Counted from the stretch's first letter, positions 13,420 through 60,342 are shown. The stretch is DNA of 64,000 bases from Draconibacterium sp. (GCA_041583785.1 JBFHFE010000006.1:44409-108408), one strand, 5' to 3'. Notes: a model not told the origin generated them from the sequence alone. Numbers and translations are program-made.

Positions 13420-14493
13420 TTATTTCAACAACGGAGCTCCATCGAAAGTAACCGAGCGCAAAATTGCTGTTGCTTTTTCAGCTGCTGCTGCCGGAAGTGG
13501 AGCATAGTGCACTTTTTCGGCTTGCCCTTGTGCATCGGCGCTCACTAACCAATCGAGGAACGAAACTGTTGCCAGAGCCTGTTCTTTTGAACGCCCATTG
13601 TAGTTCTGCTCTTTGTACAGAATAATCCATGTAAATCCGCTAATGGGATAGGCTTCCGGATCGGTGGAGTTGGTAAGCATAATTCGTGTATCAGCAGGAA
13701 TTTCGCCTTTGGCAGCCGCACTAACCGAAGCAATGGATGGCACAATGTAATTACCCGAACTGTTTTGAACTTTCGCAGTCTGAATTTTCTGTGCGAAAGC
13801 GTATTCCGAGCCTATGTAACCAATGGCACCTTCGGTTTGTTTAATCGTTCCTGCTACACCCGGATTTCCTTTAGCTCCCATACCCACCGGCCACTGCAAG
13901 GATTTTCCAACACCCACTTTTTCAGCCCAAACCGAACTAACCTTAGTCATGTAGTCGCTAAAAATATAGGTTGTACCACTGCCATCTGAACGATGCACAA
14001 AAGTTATGTCCAGATCAGGAAGAGCTGCTCCCGCATTGTTTTCTTTTATTGCAGCATCGTTCCATTTGGTAATTTCGCCCATAAAGATTTTCTCCAACAG
14101 GGCATTCGATAGTTTAAGATCGTCAACACCGGGAAGGTTATAAGCAATTACTACTGCGCCTAATACCGTTGGAATATGAACCACTTCTGCTGGCATAGCA
14201 GCTAATTTTTCGTCGTTCAAATACGCATCGGTTGCTCCAAAGTCGACTACCTTATCGGTTAAACTGCGAATACCCCCGCCCGAGCCTATCCCGCCATAGG
14301 TTAAGAGGGTTCCGTTTTGCGAGGTGTAAGCTTTAAAAACCATATTGTAGTAAGGCATCGGAAAAGTTGCTCCCGCTGCCGTTAAAGTCACTTTTCTGGC
14401 ACTTGCAGACTTTTCGCTACTTTCTTTTTTCGAAGAATTTGAACAAGCTCCCAGGAAAAAAACTGCTAAAATTATTACTGCTAATTGTTTCAT
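13420..14493 (-). CDS. pstS: Phosphate-binding lipoprotein PstS
   Basis: 357 aa with lipobox VFFLGACS. Contains PBP-like motifs (TAAGATFPMPYY, GGIGSGGGI, HRSDGSGTT). Confidence 0.9.
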   Translation of the reverse strand: MKQLAVIILAVFFLGACSNSSKKESSEKSASARKVTLTAAGATFPMPYYNMVFKAYTSQNGTLLTYGGIGSGGGIRSLTDKVVDFGATDAYLNDEKLAAMPAEVVHIPTVLGAVVIAYNLPGVDDLKLSNALLEKIFMGEITKWNDAAIKENNAGAALPDLDITFVHRSDGSGTTYIFSDYMTKVSSVWAEKVGVGKSLQWPVGMGAKGNPGVAGTIKQTEGAIGYIGSEYAFAQKIQTAKVQNSSGNYIVPSIASVSAAAKGEIPADTRIMLTNSTDPEAYPISGFTWIILYKEQNYNGRSKEQALATVSFLDWLVSADAQGQAEKVHYAPLPAAAAEKATAILRSVTFDGAPLLK

Positions 14494-14589
14494 CTTATTA
14501 AAAATGTTAGTTTTCTAAGGTATAAGATAGAACTCGCATGATTTTAAGAAACCCCCGATGTGTGAATATTTCTCTCATGCTCGTTTCAT
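14494..14589 (-). promoter_or_regulatory. Conserved leader cassette R2, copy 1 (abuts the pstS ATG)
   Basis: Aligns along its full length with 28387-28481 (minus) and 59767-59859 (plus). See findings. Confidence 0.7.
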
Positions 14590-27567: not shown

Positions 27568-28386
27568 CTATTCAGATATCAATTTGTAAATATCGCGCGC
27601 TACCATATTGTTATTTTCTGCAATAACCCTTAAGGTTTCTGTTGGTTTCGCATCAATATTATTCGCTTTCAGGATTTCCATAATATCGTCGACGCTTTTG
27701 TCTGTTTCCGCGGCATAGTCTTCCATGGTTTTTCTTCCAATGCCCGAACCTTGTTGCTGCTGATTTCCTGTCTTTTTTGAGATTATTTCGTAAATCTCTG
27801 CGGGTGTTAATTTATTGGCTAGCCCAATGTCTTGCAACTTTTGCGAATAAACATTATCATACTTAATTTTATGCCTATCCAATTTCCGTGTAATCTCATC
27901 AACCGATTCCAAATTCATCTGCTCCGAAAGTTCTGTTAATGTTAACTGTTCGGCATGCGGAACCGGCGCCCTATCTTCAACTTTCTCCCACGAATCAGTA
28001 AAATGTTCACCCAAATTCATCACCGTTTTAAAAGGAGGGATGGAAAAAATGGTTCCGAAAAAGAAAATTAATACCACCAGTGTAGAAACTATAAATTCGC
28101 GCTTTTTATTAAATCCGGTAGATGTTTTCGATTTGAGGTAAGAAACGAAGGTTTTCCAGTTAACCGAGAGTAAATGGAAGATTGAAAGGATAACAAAACC
28201 AAAAGAAAAAATAGTATGAATAGCCTGCCAGCCTTCTTTTGAAAACCCCCAGATTGTCCAGTTTACCCAGTGCGCGTATCGCCCAGGAGGGGCAACATAC
28301 AACATAATTCCCGAAAGCAGGATGATAACAATTGCATATGTCAATCCAAAACTAATGAAGGCACGCCAGCTAAACTTCTTTTTCAT
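27568..28386 (-). CDS. DUF4405-like membrane protein with a C-terminal repeated helical module
   Basis: Four TM segments with conserved His (AHWVNW, AIHTIFSF..FHLL). The C-terminal half has ~4 degenerate ~30-aa helix-turn motifs. It is the first gene of the ECF operon. Confidence 0.5.
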   Translation of the reverse strand: MKKKFSWRAFISFGLTYAIVIILLSGIMLYVAPPGRYAHWVNWTIWGFSKEGWQAIHTIFSFGFVILSIFHLLSVNWKTFVSYLKSKTSTGFNKKREFIVSTLVVLIFFFGTIFSIPPFKTVMNLGEHFTDSWEKVEDRAPVPHAEQLTLTELSEQMNLESVDEITRKLDRHKIKYDNVYSQKLQDIGLANKLTPAEIYEIISKKTGNQQQQGSGIGRKTMEDYAAETDKSVDDIMEILKANNIDAKPTETLRVIAENNNMVARDIYKLISE

Positions 28387-28481
28387 TTTATTAAAATTGA
28401 TTGTTTTCTATGGTATAGGATGTAACTCGCATGATTTTAATTAATCGCCTATATGTGAAAAACTTCTAATGCCCGTTTCAT
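28387..28481 (-). promoter_or_regulatory. Conserved leader cassette R2, copy 2 (abuts the ATG of the first ECF-operon gene)
   Basis: About 77% identical to 14494-14589 in a hand alignment. The alignment runs from the start codon to ATGAAACG. Confidence 0.7.
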
Positions 28482-28696
28482 CTCATTATTTTTTGCGTTT
28501 CTAAAGGTTTAAGACACGGGTGGAAGAAAATCCTTGCGCCTGAAACTAAATTAATTCTCTTTTACTTCGTGTTTTGAAGATTCCAATCGTCCACCACGAT
28601 ATAGAAACCGTTTCGACATGGTAAACAGAATTTATTTGCATCCCGGCGGTTAAGCGCTTAATAATCTAAGCCCGAAGATAGATTTACCGGTGCTGT

Positions 28697-37034: not shown

Positions 37035-39398
37035 TTACAAGCTACCCAGTTTTATTCCGAAATAAATCGTACGCGGATTAATTGGCCCGTACACATAAGC
37101 AGGGTCGCGATCAACACCTGAATCGAAATCATCCTGATAGCTGTTAAGTATATTTTTAACGCCACCATTTAGCTGCAATTTCATGTTGTCGGTAATCCGC
37201 AAATCGTAGCTTAATTTTATTCCTGCATCAAAAAAAGAATCGCTTTCCCGCAATTCGCCTTCATCGGGGTTGGCAATCGTATTTCCAAAATAAGGCACCA
37301 GCATACTTCCGGTGTAATTCCCGGTAAACGATACATTTAAACGTGGCGTAGGAATATAATTCATACTTAAATAGCCATAAGTATTTGGCGTTCTAAAGAA
37401 TCGCCTTTCATCAAATTCCTGGGCATCTTCGTATTCACTTTTCTGAAGTGTTAATCCCGACTGTAATTGTATTTTTTGTGATGGAGAAGCGTTGAATTCG
37501 AGGTTAATTCCGGCAACTGTTGCGCCACCTTCAGCATTAACGCGAGTATAAACTACGGTTCCATCTTCGTCGGCTTCACCGTATTCATTAACAAAAGGAT
37601 CGATTAACTGAGTATAAAACCCTTCCATTAAAATTTGGTATTGCCAAGTCCCCGAATGGTTCGAGTAATCGAGCGATGCAGTTAAACTGTTTGACGATTC
37701 CTGGGTTAGATCGGGATCATTCTCATGAATTACGGTACGAGCTGCTGATGCTTCAATGTGCAAATCCTCATCGAAAATCTGAGGAGCACGGAATCCACGG
37801 CCATAGCTGGTTCTAAACTGCAAATCAGGAGATAAATTATAAAGTAAACTTACACGTGGACTTAGTACATCGCCTGAAACATCACCGTCATCATCCGCTG
37901 CATCTTCAATATTATAATGGTCGAAACGTAAACCAACACTAAATACCATTTTCCGGGTTTTCCACTCCGACTGCAAAAATGCTCCACTAATTGATAAAGT
38001 CTGGTCGGCAACAAGCGTATTATCGTAATATATATCTTCTGCCCTGTCGTAATATCCTAGCTTTTCATCTTTTAGCCGGCTTCCGTTCGTTTCAATCCCA
38101 CTGGTAAATGTTGCCGGAGCAAATAGAAAAAGATCACTGTTTCTGATGTATTCCATCCCCACAACATAGGTAAGGTCTTCTGTAGTTCCGTATGCCGACA
38201 AATCCTGTTCTGCGCCATAGTACGAGTCGCGGTTAACTCCTTGCATAGATGCGTAGGCCGAGAATTTGTCACTCTCGCGTAGCAATAAGCTAAAATTAAG
38301 CGCTCCCGAATTAATTTCGTGCTCCACACTTTCTGCAATATCTGCCTCATGTTCAGGCAAATCGAAATCATTTCCTCCTCTACGGGATTCATTAATATTG
38401 AAATAATCAAGCGTTAGTTTTCCGCGACTGGCAATACGCTGATAAAAGCGAGCACCCAAAGTTGCATTGTTAATGGTAGAAAGTTCTGAATAACCATCGC
38501 CATTGGCATCGAAAGGATCGCGTTTACGATGGAAGCCAAATATGCTCATTCCGGTTTTATAGTCGTCGCTTACAAATGAGCCGTTTAAATTCATATTATA
38601 ATCGTAGGCGGCATCGTAATCGTTTCCAAGCCCCACAAAACTATTCGACACCGAAGCCTCAAACACATTCGAGATTGGGTCTTTTGTTATTAAGTTTATA
38701 GTACCGGCAATGGCATTACTTCCATACATCGAAGAACCGCCACCACGAATTACTTCTACTCTTTCTATCATATTGGCAGGAATTAACTCAAGCCCGTAAA
38801 CCCCGGCCAAGCCACTAAATACGGGTCGTGAATTAATTAAGATTTGAGAATACGGCCCTTCCAAACCATTCATTCTAACTTGCGAAAATCCACAGTTCTG
38901 ACAATTATTCTCCATACGCAATCCCGGAGAGAAATTCAATCCTTCGCTAAGGGTTACACTTTGTACGCGTTCGAATAATTTGGGATTAATACTGTTAACA
39001 ATGGTAGGAGTTTCTTTACGACTTTTCGCATTTCGGTCGGCAGAAATTACCACTTGCTCCAAACCAATAACATCGGGGTTTAGTTCGAGCAAAAGAGTTA
39101 CACTTTCTTTAGCTTTTAAAACAACTTCCTTTTCCAGCGTTTCGTACCCAATGGCAGAAATCAGCAGTGTTTGTTTTCCTACCGGCAAATTCGTCATTTT
39201 AAAATGCCCGGTTGCATCGGCAGCCGTTCCTATTGTAGTTCCTTTAATGGTTACGGTGGCAAACGGAATGTGTTCTTCTCCCGACTTTACATCGCCAAAA
39301 AGCATGGCATCGGTTTTTGATTTTTTGTCGTCGTTTTCTTCGGCATCAACAAAAGTTACGCCGGTTAATAGTACAAAAAGTGCTAATATCAGTTTCAT
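37035..39398 (-). CDS. TonB-dependent receptor (CarboxypepD_reg + plug + barrel)
   Basis: 787 aa. Plug motifs (IERVEVIRGGGSSMYGSNAIAGTINLITK) and a barrel region. Confidence 0.85.
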   Translation of the reverse strand: MKLILALFVLLTGVTFVDAEENDDKKSKTDAMLFGDVKSGEEHIPFATVTIKGTTIGTAADATGHFKMTNLPVGKQTLLISAIGYETLEKEVVLKAKESVTLLLELNPDVIGLEQVVISADRNAKSRKETPTIVNSINPKLFERVQSVTLSEGLNFSPGLRMENNCQNCGFSQVRMNGLEGPYSQILINSRPVFSGLAGVYGLELIPANMIERVEVIRGGGSSMYGSNAIAGTINLITKDPISNVFEASVSNSFVGLGNDYDAAYDYNMNLNGSFVSDDYKTGMSIFGFHRKRDPFDANGDGYSELSTINNATLGARFYQRIASRGKLTLDYFNINESRRGGNDFDLPEHEADIAESVEHEINSGALNFSLLLRESDKFSAYASMQGVNRDSYYGAEQDLSAYGTTEDLTYVVGMEYIRNSDLFLFAPATFTSGIETNGSRLKDEKLGYYDRAEDIYYDNTLVADQTLSISGAFLQSEWKTRKMVFSVGLRFDHYNIEDAADDDGDVSGDVLSPRVSLLYNLSPDLQFRTSYGRGFRAPQIFDEDLHIEASAARTVIHENDPDLTQESSNSLTASLDYSNHSGTWQYQILMEGFYTQLIDPFVNEYGEADEDGTVVYTRVNAEGGATVAGINLEFNASPSQKIQLQSGLTLQKSEYEDAQEFDERRFFRTPNTYGYLSMNYIPTPRLNVSFTGNYTGSMLVPYFGNTIANPDEGELRESDSFFDAGIKLSYDLRITDNMKLQLNGGVKNILNSYQDDFDSGVDRDPAYVYGPINPRTIYFGIKLGSL

Positions 39399-39727
39399 AT
39401 GATTATGACTGTTAATTTATAAGGGATCATATGGAAGTCGCACTTTAATCAGGCGCTATAGCGCGCAATTTCCCATCCGACTTTCATTTGATTATACTTA
39501 AAAGTATCCTGTGAGACTTATCCTGCTTCCAATTTGAGAACAAAACACCGTATTGGATATGCCGATTCTTTCTTGTTTGCAAAGGGCAAAAAGAATCAAT
39601 TTACATGCGGCATTTTTTAATCAATTTGGCATACGTCATTCAGACAGGTCTCTGACGAATACATAAATCTGTTAATAATGCTTTAAACATTTAATTTGAG
39701 TAAGGGGCCTAAAATATGTAGAAAGCG

Positions 39728-42826: not shown

Positions 42827-43017
42827 TGTTCAAAAATGGTGTACAAACATACAAATTCCTGATAATACTGCGTGTTATGTGTTGTTAAATAAATCAATGA
42901 AAAGTAAAACCTAACAAAAGAGACTGCCAACCGGTGATTGTTTGCAATTTAGTTGCTTAATTATTCCGGTTATATCAGAATTATTATAACTTGTTTCTGA
43001 TTTTGAAAATTAAAACA

Positions 43018-59766: not shown

Positions 59767-59859
59767 ATGAAACGGCATGAAAAATATTCGCTCATCGGCG
59801 ATTTATTAAAATCATGCGGGTTTCATCTTATAGCCTAGAAAACAAACATTTTTAATACG
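59767..59859 (+). promoter_or_regulatory. Conserved leader cassette R2, copy 3 (abuts the rhodanese ATG)
   Basis: atgaaacggcatgaaaaatattcgctcatcggcgatttattaaaatcatgcgggtttcatcttatagcctagaaaacaaacatttttaatacg aligns with the reverse complements of 14494-14589 and 28387-28481. Confidence 0.7.
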
Positions 59860-60342
59860 ATGAAAAGAATACTTTTTTCACTGGCGCTGCTATTTATCAT
59901 GACGGCAGCTTCGAGTGCTCAGGAAACAAAAATATATTCAAGCTTTGCCGAAATGGTTGAAGCAGCCAAAGCTGTAATCGACGAAATTTCAATAAACGAT
60001 TTTCATGCCGAGTACGCACAAACACTTCAAAACGGAAATCCCGATTTTATTTTAATCGACATCCGCACCGAGGCCGAATACATCGAAGGATATATTCCGG
60101 GAGCATTTTTAATTCAACGCGGAACGCTTGAGTCGCGCCTCGAAAAAGATGAGGTTTGGGAAGCATTTAACTATACAAAGCCTGAAAAATCGGATACGAT
60201 AATTTTATATTGCCGAACAGGAAACCGCGGAGCGCTGGCTGCCCGAAGCCTCATGATGCTGGGCTACACCAATGTAAAATCGATGGAAGGCGGTTGGAAA
60301 GCCTGGAGCGAAGAATATCCAAACCTAATAATGACAAACTAA
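59860..60342 (+). CDS. Rhodanese-like domain protein (secreted)
   Basis: Signal peptide present. Active-site loop LYCRTGNRGA. Confidence 0.8.
   Translation: MKRILFSLALLFIMTAASSAQETKIYSSFAEMVEAAKAVIDEISINDFHAEYAQTLQNGNPDFILIDIRTEAEYIEGYIPGAFLIQRGTLESRLEKDEVWEAFNYTKPEKSDTIILYCRTGNRGALAARSLMMLGYTNVKSMEGGWKAWSEEYPNLIMTN

Follow-up and report, generated by a model that had tools for sequence, protein, structure and literature searches.

The 64-kb window analyzed here (64,000 nucleotides of Draconibacterium sp., GCA_041583785.1 JBFHFE010000006.1:44409-108408, the whole stretch to which positions refer unless a locus number is given) contains four copies of a short, noncoding and probably mobile element, each of them directly 5′ of a gene (Table 1). 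Three copies, S1 to S3, had been described in an earlier note on this DNA as a portable leader cassette fused to the start codons of unrelated exported-protein genes. All three had been placed correctly, and each runs exactly to the ATG of its gene, namely, pstS, the DUF4405 gene that opens an extracytoplasmic function (ECF) sigma factor operon, and a rhodanese gene. As also proposed, S1 is located within the porin-pstS spacer of the Pho locus, where a 45-nt spacer is followed by the 96-nt element and then by ATGAAA.

S1, S2, and S3 are homologous. An nhmmer profile recovered them from the window with E values of 5e-28, 6.5e-26, and 3e-25, the next match being at E 0.03, and their mean column identity was 79% in an alignment that included about 25 nt of flank on each side. 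Their flanks and coding parts are mutually unrelated. The earlier count of three copies was too low, however, as a diverged copy (copy 4) precedes a TonB-dependent receptor gene. This copy scored E 0.03 with the three-copy profile and E 4e-5 with a better profile, and a covariance model matched it at 39393-39487(-) with 47.6 bits (E 4e-6, window scan). A full-sensitivity covariance-model scan of the window revealed no copies beyond these four, all of which precede genes in the sense orientation.

Table 1. Copies of the element, adjoining genes, and structural parts of copy S1 in the 64-kb window (CM, covariance model; UTR, untranslated region)
Feature	Position	Strand	Context or remark	CM score
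Copy S1, 96 nt	14494..14589	-	Between the 45-nt porin-pstS spacer and the pstS start codon	98.2 bits
Copy S2, 95 nt	28387..28481	-	Within the 5′ UTR of the DUF4405-ECF sigma-anti-sigma operon	87.8 bits
Copy S3, 93 nt	59767..59859	+	Between a metallo-beta-lactamase-fold gene (Pfam; stop 33 nt upstream) and the rhodanese start codon	84.8 bits
Copy 4, 89 nt, diverged subfamily	39399..39487	-	Directly 5′ of the ATGAAA of the TonB-dependent receptor gene	CM match (see text)
ATGAAA, pstS start codon plus Lys codon	14488..14493	-	Conserved 3′ junction/target hexamer
S1 P1, 5′ arm ATGAAACGAGCATGA	14575..14589	-	Opens with the second ATGAAA; pairs with 14527-14541
S1 P1, 3′ arm TCATGCGAGTTCTAT	14527..14541	-	Contains the central TTC(C/T)AT complementary to ATGAAA
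S1 P2 hairpin region	14561..14577	-	Family consensus TGnnnn ... n'n'n'n'CA
S1 P3 hairpin	14491..14529	-	(C/T)AT+CTTAT ... ATAAG+ATG; A-rich loop of ~23 nt; 3′ arm includes the start codon
pstS (PBP_like_2/PstS)	13420-14493	-	ATG adjoins S1
DUF4405 membrane protein gene	27568-28386	-	First gene of the ECF sigma/zf-HC2 anti-sigma/Metal_resist operon; ATG adjoins S2
Rhodanese gene	59860-60342	+	ATG adjoins S3
TonB-dependent receptor gene	37035-39398	-	ATG adjoins copy 4
ECF-type promoter-like motif GCGCAAGG-N14-GTGTCTTA	28510..28539	-	Native, outside the element, upstream of S2

The element is not confined to this window. One exact-pattern scan of species-representative genomes yielded 28 loci, nearly all from Prolixibacteraceae (Maribellus, Mariniphaga, Draconibacterium, and metagenome-assembled genomes [MAGs]), and a gapped-pattern scan of metagenome contigs added 53 more, whereas a pattern scan of a viral contig collection gave no matches. 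The search patterns derived from the arms of helix P1 (see below); P2, most of P3, and the flanks were left free in the metagenome pattern. With 81 loci beyond the window carrying the element, a purely local duplication, the alternative that the earlier note had raised against itself, does not apply. The covariance model gave 87 matches in 494 kb of collected loci (designated L), and across the family the element measures about 90 to 135 nt and has a G+C content of 22 to 38%. The earlier failure to match it to any known riboswitch or leader family was borne out: the window contained no match to an Rfam 15 family at gathering score, and for S1 even a permissive scan returned only noise (E of at least 0.77). 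In the literature, neither descriptive searches nor searches for the literal sequence turned up an earlier account of the element.

Empty sites, junctions, and copy number

The cassette is an insertion. pstS homologues that are 86 to 90% identical occur in the same Pho locus (PHO4, a porin-like gene, pstSCAB, phoU, and a response regulator gene), and in L082 to L086 the porin-pstS spacer is 39 to 87 nt long, lacks the element, and is followed by a pstS gene that already opens with ATGAAA. S2 is absent from the same DUF4405-ECF operon in L091, L092, and L093, where the DUF4405 gene starts with ATGAAG in two relatives (the closest) and with ATGAAA in one. Likewise, copy 4 is missing from the orthologous receptor loci of four relatives (L087 to L090; receptors 77 to 78% identical), two Draconibacterium species among those without it opening the receptor gene with ATGAAACCC. 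The empty sites at pstS and at the receptor gene carry a single ATGAAA. In Prolixibacteraceae bacterium Z1-6, the pst and ECF loci lie on one contig as in the window, with neither S1 nor S2, and a Draconibacterium assembly with an empty pstS site (L082) has the element elsewhere (L012). Conversely, Draconibacterium halophilum (CP048409) carries a copy of independent origin that separates the stop codon of pstA from the ATGAAA of pstB (L084, 6968-7067), so that this gap consists of a 10-nt spacer and a 94-nt element, compared with 12 to 13 nt in relatives. The term "portable" was therefore well chosen for S1, S2, and copy 4, and the family as a whole extends across genera and metagenomes. We noted that the two insertions in the pst operon, S1 and the pstA-pstB copy, arose separately and that both genes start with ATGAAA; this double occupation could be chance or a hint of selection.

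The element is multicopy and has been active recently. The MAG PL24a_bin.47 contains four identical copies in different flanks, a fifth with one base changed, and a sixth cut by a contig end, and bin.19 of the same sample has one further copy, also cut. Many contigs from several assemblies end at the element, and two independent Logan assemblies of the window's own strain, which carry its exact pstS, begin 5 nt inside S1. In addition, head-to-tail tandem copies with one common ATGAAA were found in L027/L042/L076, L075, and L056 and in the flanks of L060, L066, L077, and L079. Tandems that have a single ATGAAA in common are expected if each copy recreates the target at its own end.

At all 67 distinct sites, the element is followed, in one orientation, by ATGAAA or a one-base variant of it (e.g., ATGAAT, GTGAAA, or ATTAAA). 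The flanks are A/T-rich and show no conservation beyond the hexamer. At 36 of these sites, the hexamer leads in frame into an open reading frame (ORF) that spans 60 codons or more or extends past the contig end; the remaining 31 have no such ORF. The earlier statement that similarity stops at the start codon thus needs amending, since ATGAAA is conserved throughout the family even where there is no ORF; that the coding regions are unrelated was correct. The genes behind the element are diverse and include those for a response regulator, an NAD(P)-binding-type protein with an N-terminal GxxGxxG motif, and the PstB ATPase, and the earlier label "exported-protein genes" does not cover them: this association is a by-product of Met-Lys starts. 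Similarly, "leader" fits the four copies in the window but does not define the family, given the 31 sites without an ORF, the intact P3 hairpin at such sites, and the tandem copies; the leader role follows from where the element lands. At one site (L032, 861-956), the following ORF of 195 codons, with a signal-peptide-like N terminus (KKLLFLAT), opens with ATTAAA in place of ATGAAA, which may be a mutated or noncanonical start or a sequencing error.

Of the ATGAAA sites in 424 kb, a rough count placed 61% inside genes, 28% between genes, and 10% at predicted gene starts. None of the 67 insertions looked intragenic when the surrounding ORFs were inspected (a reading of context and not a scored test), which we attribute to the loss of disruptive insertions. 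Relative to the other nongenic ATGAAA sites, gene starts were about 2-fold over-represented (P values from 2e-6 to 0.02, depending on the assumed baseline), and this excess may reflect a preference for A-rich contexts or a benefit to the host.

The ends of the element are not terminal inverted repeats, as the 5′ end ATGAAACGAGCATG and the 3′ end ...TTTTAATAAG(ATGAAA) are not inverted copies of each other and the only long inverted repeat (P1) is internal. ATGAAA is found at both junctions, and where one junction carries a one-base variant, the other does not match it: 5′ ATGAAAC occurs with 3′ ATGAAT (L021, L024, and L060), and 5′ TTGAAAC or GTGAAAC occurs with 3′ ATGAAA (L012 and L026). The two junction hexamers hence do not behave as copies of a duplicated, variable target sequence. 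The element can be read either as [ATGAAAC...AAG] lying 5′ of its target or as [C...AAGATGAAA] lying 3′ of it, and the sequence alone would fit both.

Folded structure

The earlier note had drawn one stem, GAAAC-GR-GCATGA/TCATGC-GR-GTTnC, in all copies. This stem is present in S1, S3, and the family generally, but the 5′ arm of S2 reads GCATTA, and the stem makes up only one portion of a larger fold in which two further hairpins, P2 and P3, covary. In the first helix, P1, ATGAAACGAGCATGA pairs family-wide with TCATGCGAGTTCCAT, interrupted by tandem G.A/A.G mismatches. An A.C mismatch in the helix is found in 61 of 80 unique copies, and its position is unpaired in 59 of 60 alignment cells. P2 is a six-pair hairpin that begins at the TG of GCATG and varies in sequence while its complementarity is kept (TGACAA/TTGTCA, TGTAAA/TTTACA, TGTTTA/TAAACA, and TGTGAA/TTCACA); a 6-bp hairpin with at most one mismatch was present in 54 of 70 copies, compared with 10.8 expected from shuffles.

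In P3, CAT and the five variable bases behind it pair across an A-rich loop of about 23 nt with five complementary bases and ATG; at every site with a gene behind it, this ATG is the start codon. The stems of different subfamilies all pair (CATCTTAT/ATAAGATG, CATACTAT/ATAGTATG, CATATGAT/ATCATATG, CATGTGTT/AACACATG, CATCCGA/TCGGATG, CATCAG/CTGATG, and CATACGAT/ATCGTATG). In a 60-sequence alignment, 87% of the P3 cells were paired, compared with 16 to 36% when the partners were slid. Covariation was evident at three pairs (CG43/AU6/GC3/UA3, UA30/CG14/AU7, and UA28/GC27), with 12 to 28 double changes at each, and none of 500 shuffles reached the observed score. The check for covariation that the earlier note had called for thus found compensatory changes in both P2 and P3. 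Copy 4 bears them as well: its P1 is ATGAAAGTCG/CGACTTCCAT, in which a C-G pair has become G-C and the G.A/A.G mismatches have become T-A and C-G while the A.C mismatch is kept, and its P3 is CATATGAT/ATCATATG. The minimum-free-energy fold of S1 RNA includes P1 and P3 (z = -2.1).

Two further features of the fold concern the junctions. The central TTCCAT is complementary both to the ATGAAA at the 5′ end of the element, at the foot of P1, and to the ATGAAA that follows the element, at the foot of P3, and about 35 nt on the 3′ side form an unpaired A-rich part. P3 was equally intact at gene starts and at sites that lack a gene, with 7.1 and 6.6 of 8 pairs, respectively (P = 0.13), which argues that P3 is part of the element's own biology and does not serve to regulate a particular gene.

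Several variants were observed within the family. One subfamily (L054 1095-1260, L056 529-690, L057 2897-3060, and L078 from 1892) keeps P1 and P2 and has a different tail of about 75 nt; P3 is not obvious in it, yet its end adjoins ATGAAA or GTGAAA as before. An extra G+C-rich hairpin of roughly 20 to 50 nt is located at one internal position, between GAGTTC and CAT, in L067, L052, L034, and L049, and extra hairpins also occur in L008, L023, and L027 (within P2) and in L056, several of them ending in GGCAGG(C); such hairpins may represent either an expandable arm or another small element, resembling a repetitive extragenic palindrome (REP), that has this one as its target. In two Mariniphaga genomes, the orthologous copies L021 1217-1318 and L024 226-327 differ at 3 of 102 positions and at 6 positions of the 40-nt upstream flank. 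In another pair, L051 4648-4748 and L065 4524-4624 are identical over their first 42 nt, have one difference before the 3′ arm of P1, and are decayed in the P3 region. The two patterns suggest uneven constraint or gene conversion.

Apart from the element, we noticed that the orientation of genes in the window flips at about 42830-42990, almost every gene on the left being encoded on the minus strand, and RNase R and what lies to its right on the plus strand. The GC skew of the window shows no sign change and indicates no replication origin, and because it keeps its sign at the switch, this point is probably not an origin.

Proposed mode of spread and alternative explanations

We consider it likely that these sequences are a nonautonomous, site- and orientation-specific mobile DNA element of the Prolixibacteraceae (Bacteroidota), probably moved as single-stranded DNA, which becomes a cotranscribed leader at gene starts. 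The element inserts in one orientation, exactly adjoining ATGAAA. As this Met-Lys hexamer is the commonest gene beginning in these genomes and insertions within genes are lost, surviving copies lie mostly at gene starts, including starts inside operons. There, the element is transcribed from the upstream promoter of the host, giving a new 5′ leader or intercistronic spacer. Its A-rich P3 loop would replace the displaced translation initiation region, which would explain why insertions are tolerated before essential operon genes, such as pstB. P3 is a weak, AT-rich stem that places an A-rich loop where Bacteroidetes mRNAs need an unstructured A-rich region and plausibly keeps translation going.

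Movement would take place as folded single-stranded DNA and be carried out by a trans-acting HUH/Y1 enzyme of the kind known from IS200/IS605 and from REPs and their tyrosine transposases (REP-RAYT), or by a similar structure-recognizing recombinase. The central TTCCAT would then act as an internal guide able to pair with the ATGAAA of either junction, that is, at the foot of P1 on the 5′ side and at the foot of P3 on the 3′ side. We infer such a hairpin-recognizing route from the irregularities in the hairpins, the fixed flank, the strict orientation, the same hexamer at both ends, and the complementary internal segment, and a length of 96 nt, too short for a double-stranded circle, would likewise favor a single-stranded substrate. 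As the geometry, with its single guide-like segment in the center, its helix of 7 nt, and its large P3 loop, differs from that of IS608, we allow a single-stranded HUH-type route roughly one chance in three; a tyrosine recombinase acting on a folded strand, or something new, may be responsible instead.

Several observations weigh against this account or soften its support. No transposase or recombinase could be linked to the element; approximate queries found none of the Y1 type in 560 kb of collected loci, but the enzyme need not be nearby. A P3 stem with a 23-nt loop together with a 7-nt guide-like helix is unlike textbook IS608 ends. G.T and A.C pairs in P3 (11 and 6, respectively) are indecisive as to which strand folds. 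The near-invariance of P1 says little, being due in part to the retrieval of loci with exact patterns from this helix, and the 2-fold excess at gene starts could reflect host benefit and not pure filtering. An autonomous parent was also not found among the collected loci; the longer copies of L054, L056, L057, and L078 have a 75-nt tail and no gene.

A bolder form of the mobile-element account seems to us possible but doubtful. In this form, start codons would be the homing sites of a minimal transposon that moves as single-stranded DNA and guides itself: the "anti-start" TTCCAT between two hairpins would recognize both ATGAAAs, and the element would carry a replacement initiation region that makes colonization harmless. 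In mRNA, the decoy AUGAAAC competing with the real AUGAAA could then be a portable translational switch over dozens of unrelated genes.

Among explanations other than a mobile element, a cis-regulatory RNA leader that spread because it is useful fares best, although we judge it unlikely. Such a riboswitch, thermometer, or translational toggle would have UUCCAU pair either with the decoy AUGAAAC at the foot of P1, leaving the start codon free, or with the real AUGAAA in an extended P3, hiding it. The covariation of P2 and P3, the inclusion of the start codon in P3, the S1 RNA fold, the sense orientation of all four window copies before genes, the gene-start enrichment among nongenic ATGAAA sites, and the lower divergence of the L021 and L024 copies than of their flanks would all be in keeping with it. 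However, P3 is equally intact at the many sites that have no ORF, and tandem copies, as well as identical copies within one genome, are present. Furthermore, the conserved bases lie in stems, while the loops and P2 vary and tolerate the insertion of whole hairpins, the opposite of a ligand pocket, and neither a common function among downstream genes nor an Rfam match was found. A leader peptide was considered and rejected: ATGAAACGAGCATGA encodes MKRA-stop in 43 of 71 copies, but the other copies have unrelated lengths, and this mini-ORF is explained by conservation of the stem. The frame from the 5′ ATGAAAC is open through the ATG of the gene in 9 of 71 unique copies (including L044, L048, L062, and L069), about the rate expected by chance; in these copies, translation from the displaced initiation region, should it still function, would extend the protein by about 32 residues at its N terminus.

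Far less probable is that the element brings new transcription, either as a mobile promoter read by sigma-A or an ECF sigma factor, with TGAAAC as the -35 box, or as a target of RNA-guided transcription by dCas12f-sigmaE. S2 precedes an ECF sigma operon, and the 5′ end TGAAAC resembles ECF -35 boxes. The concept of putative mobile promoters exists (PMC3575422), and dCas12f-sigmaE targets sites upstream of Bacteroidetes genes (PMC13472631). Yet the element lacks the Bacteroidetes -33/-7 motif (TTTG ... TAnnTTTG), and its single, weak sigma-70-like match is no better than those in shuffles. No intrinsic terminator was found in it either, and some copies lie inside operons only 0 to 13 nt after the preceding stop codon, so that transcription must read through the element. 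An ECF promoter inside the element was rejected for S2 in particular. Relatives without the element (L091, L092, and L093) carry GCGCAAGTTTT-N13-14-GTGTCATA about 30 nt before the DUF4405 ATG, and the window has its motif (Table 1) at the same distance before S2, the consensus being GCGCAAG(G/T)TTT-N13-14-GTGTC(A/T)TA. From its conservation and position, this motif is likely the autoregulated ECF promoter of the DUF4405-ECF sigma-anti-sigma-Metal_resist operon. As it precedes S2 and occurs without the element, S2 is located inside the original 5′ UTR of the operon and does not constitute its promoter. Involvement of dCas12f-sigmaE was rejected as well, since there is no dCas12f context and the ECF sigma factor of the window is paired with a zf-HC2 anti-sigma factor.

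We regard it as similarly improbable that the element is a folded tyrosine-recombinase site like integron attC, with P1 providing an R box (ATGAAAC/GTTCCAT), an unpaired GA/GA spacer, and an L box (GCATGA/TCATGC), P2 the variable terminal structure, and ATGAAA the core. Although the P1/P2 layout and the AAC...GTT triplets recall attC, the same core lies at both ends as site-specific recombination leaves it, and the short length would favor a single-stranded substrate here too, the R′′/R′ consensus RYYYAAC/GTTRRRY is not matched beyond AAC/GTT, cassette arrays, attI, and an integrase gene were not seen in the window or the loci, and the copies are scattered and lie in ordinary operons.

Small noncoding mobile repeats are already known. 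What is unusual here is an element placed with base-exact precision at the start codon, in one orientation, without terminal repeats and with a built-in complement of its target. If its mechanism is as proposed for the mobile element, it would be a compact case, found in nature, of DNA insertion directed by structure and pairing, and of a selfish element that keeps its own cost low by supplying a substitute for the displaced leader. The element rewires 5′ leaders of many unrelated Prolixibacteraceae genes, in the window those of genes for phosphate uptake, an ECF stress operon, and TonB receptors, and a common post-transcriptional behavior could be imposed on the genes behind the element. In practical terms, short-read assemblies break at the element, exactly at gene starts, and the decoy ATGAAA could mislead the annotation of start codons.

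Comparison with known systems

The element shares its small size, lack of coding capacity, multiple copies, and presence or absence between genomes with classical miniature inverted-repeat transposable elements (deletion derivatives of DDE transposons), but it has neither terminal inverted repeats nor a target duplication that varies with the site. Unlike integron attC sites, its ATGAAAC/GTTCCAT has only AAC/GTT in common with the consensus, and arrays and an integrase were not seen in the window. Unlike the cis-regulatory RNAs curated in Rfam 15, it shows no single functional theme downstream and no family match. Insertion at a recurrent, harmless landmark is known to lower the cost to the host, as for IS1397 and ISKpn1 in the loops of REPs and for class C group II introns behind terminators. 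For our element, the landmark is the start codon plus the first Lys codon, and in contrast to those insertions the element is tiny and noncoding.

Correia- and ERIC-type repeats have terminal inverted repeats and a TA duplication and are found in either orientation at variable distances from genes. The element differs in that it lacks such inverted repeats, occurs in one orientation only, and has a base-exact junction at ATGAAA. It resembles them as a cotranscribed intergenic passenger, the Correia/NEMIS repeats of Neisseria and the ERIC/IRU repeats of enterobacteria being intergenic repeats of about 100 to 150 nt that are cotranscribed, form RNA hairpins, and can alter the expression or stability of neighboring mRNA (in part cited in PMC3575422). 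It also falls under the operational definition of putative mobile promoters, a descriptive class of sequences that precede nonhomologous genes and are identical at 80% or more of positions across 50 nt or more (Matus-Garcia, Nijveen, and van Passel 2012; PMC3575422), whose families are common to several genera and mostly lack an Rfam match (PMC3575422). In contrast to that class, the element has a defined insertion site, structure, and boundaries and, as far as its sequence tells, no recognizable promoter.

REPs and REPINs are defined by a G+C-rich hairpin, 21 to 65 nt long, that has GT[AG]G at its foot (PMC6006769). The element has no GTAG or GTGG foot, a G+C content of only 22 to 38%, and a 35-nt unpaired A-rich part. 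Compared with IS608, one central guide-like segment serves both junctions, with the same hexamer at each, and the helix is 7 nt long and mostly Watson-Crick, whereas the guide of IS608 has 4 nt. In IS200/IS605 elements and the REP/RAYT system, a short sequence beside the foot of a hairpin pairs with the junction (PMC6006769). A Bacteroidetes-dominated Y1 subclass, 2.6, is flanked by "atypical secondary structures" (PMC6006769) and is, by analogy, a candidate enzyme class; the REPs of this subclass were rejected as a match for the element itself, as the structures listed in PMC6006769 are unlike it. The closest resemblance is to REPs and to IS200/IS605-derived palindrome-associated transposable elements (PATEs), from which the element is set apart by its AT-rich hairpins and by the conserved A-rich tail of about 35 nt that adjoins the start codon. 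Like PATEs and REPs, it has no terminal inverted repeats, junction ATGAAAs that are not like target site duplications, conserved irregular hairpins (P1/P2 and P3), and a strict orientation to a short, fixed flank. Like them, too, it is multicopy and noncoding, may be mobilized in trans, as we propose here, and carries next to a hairpin foot a segment complementary to the junction, which is predicted to pair with it around a conserved A.C mismatch.

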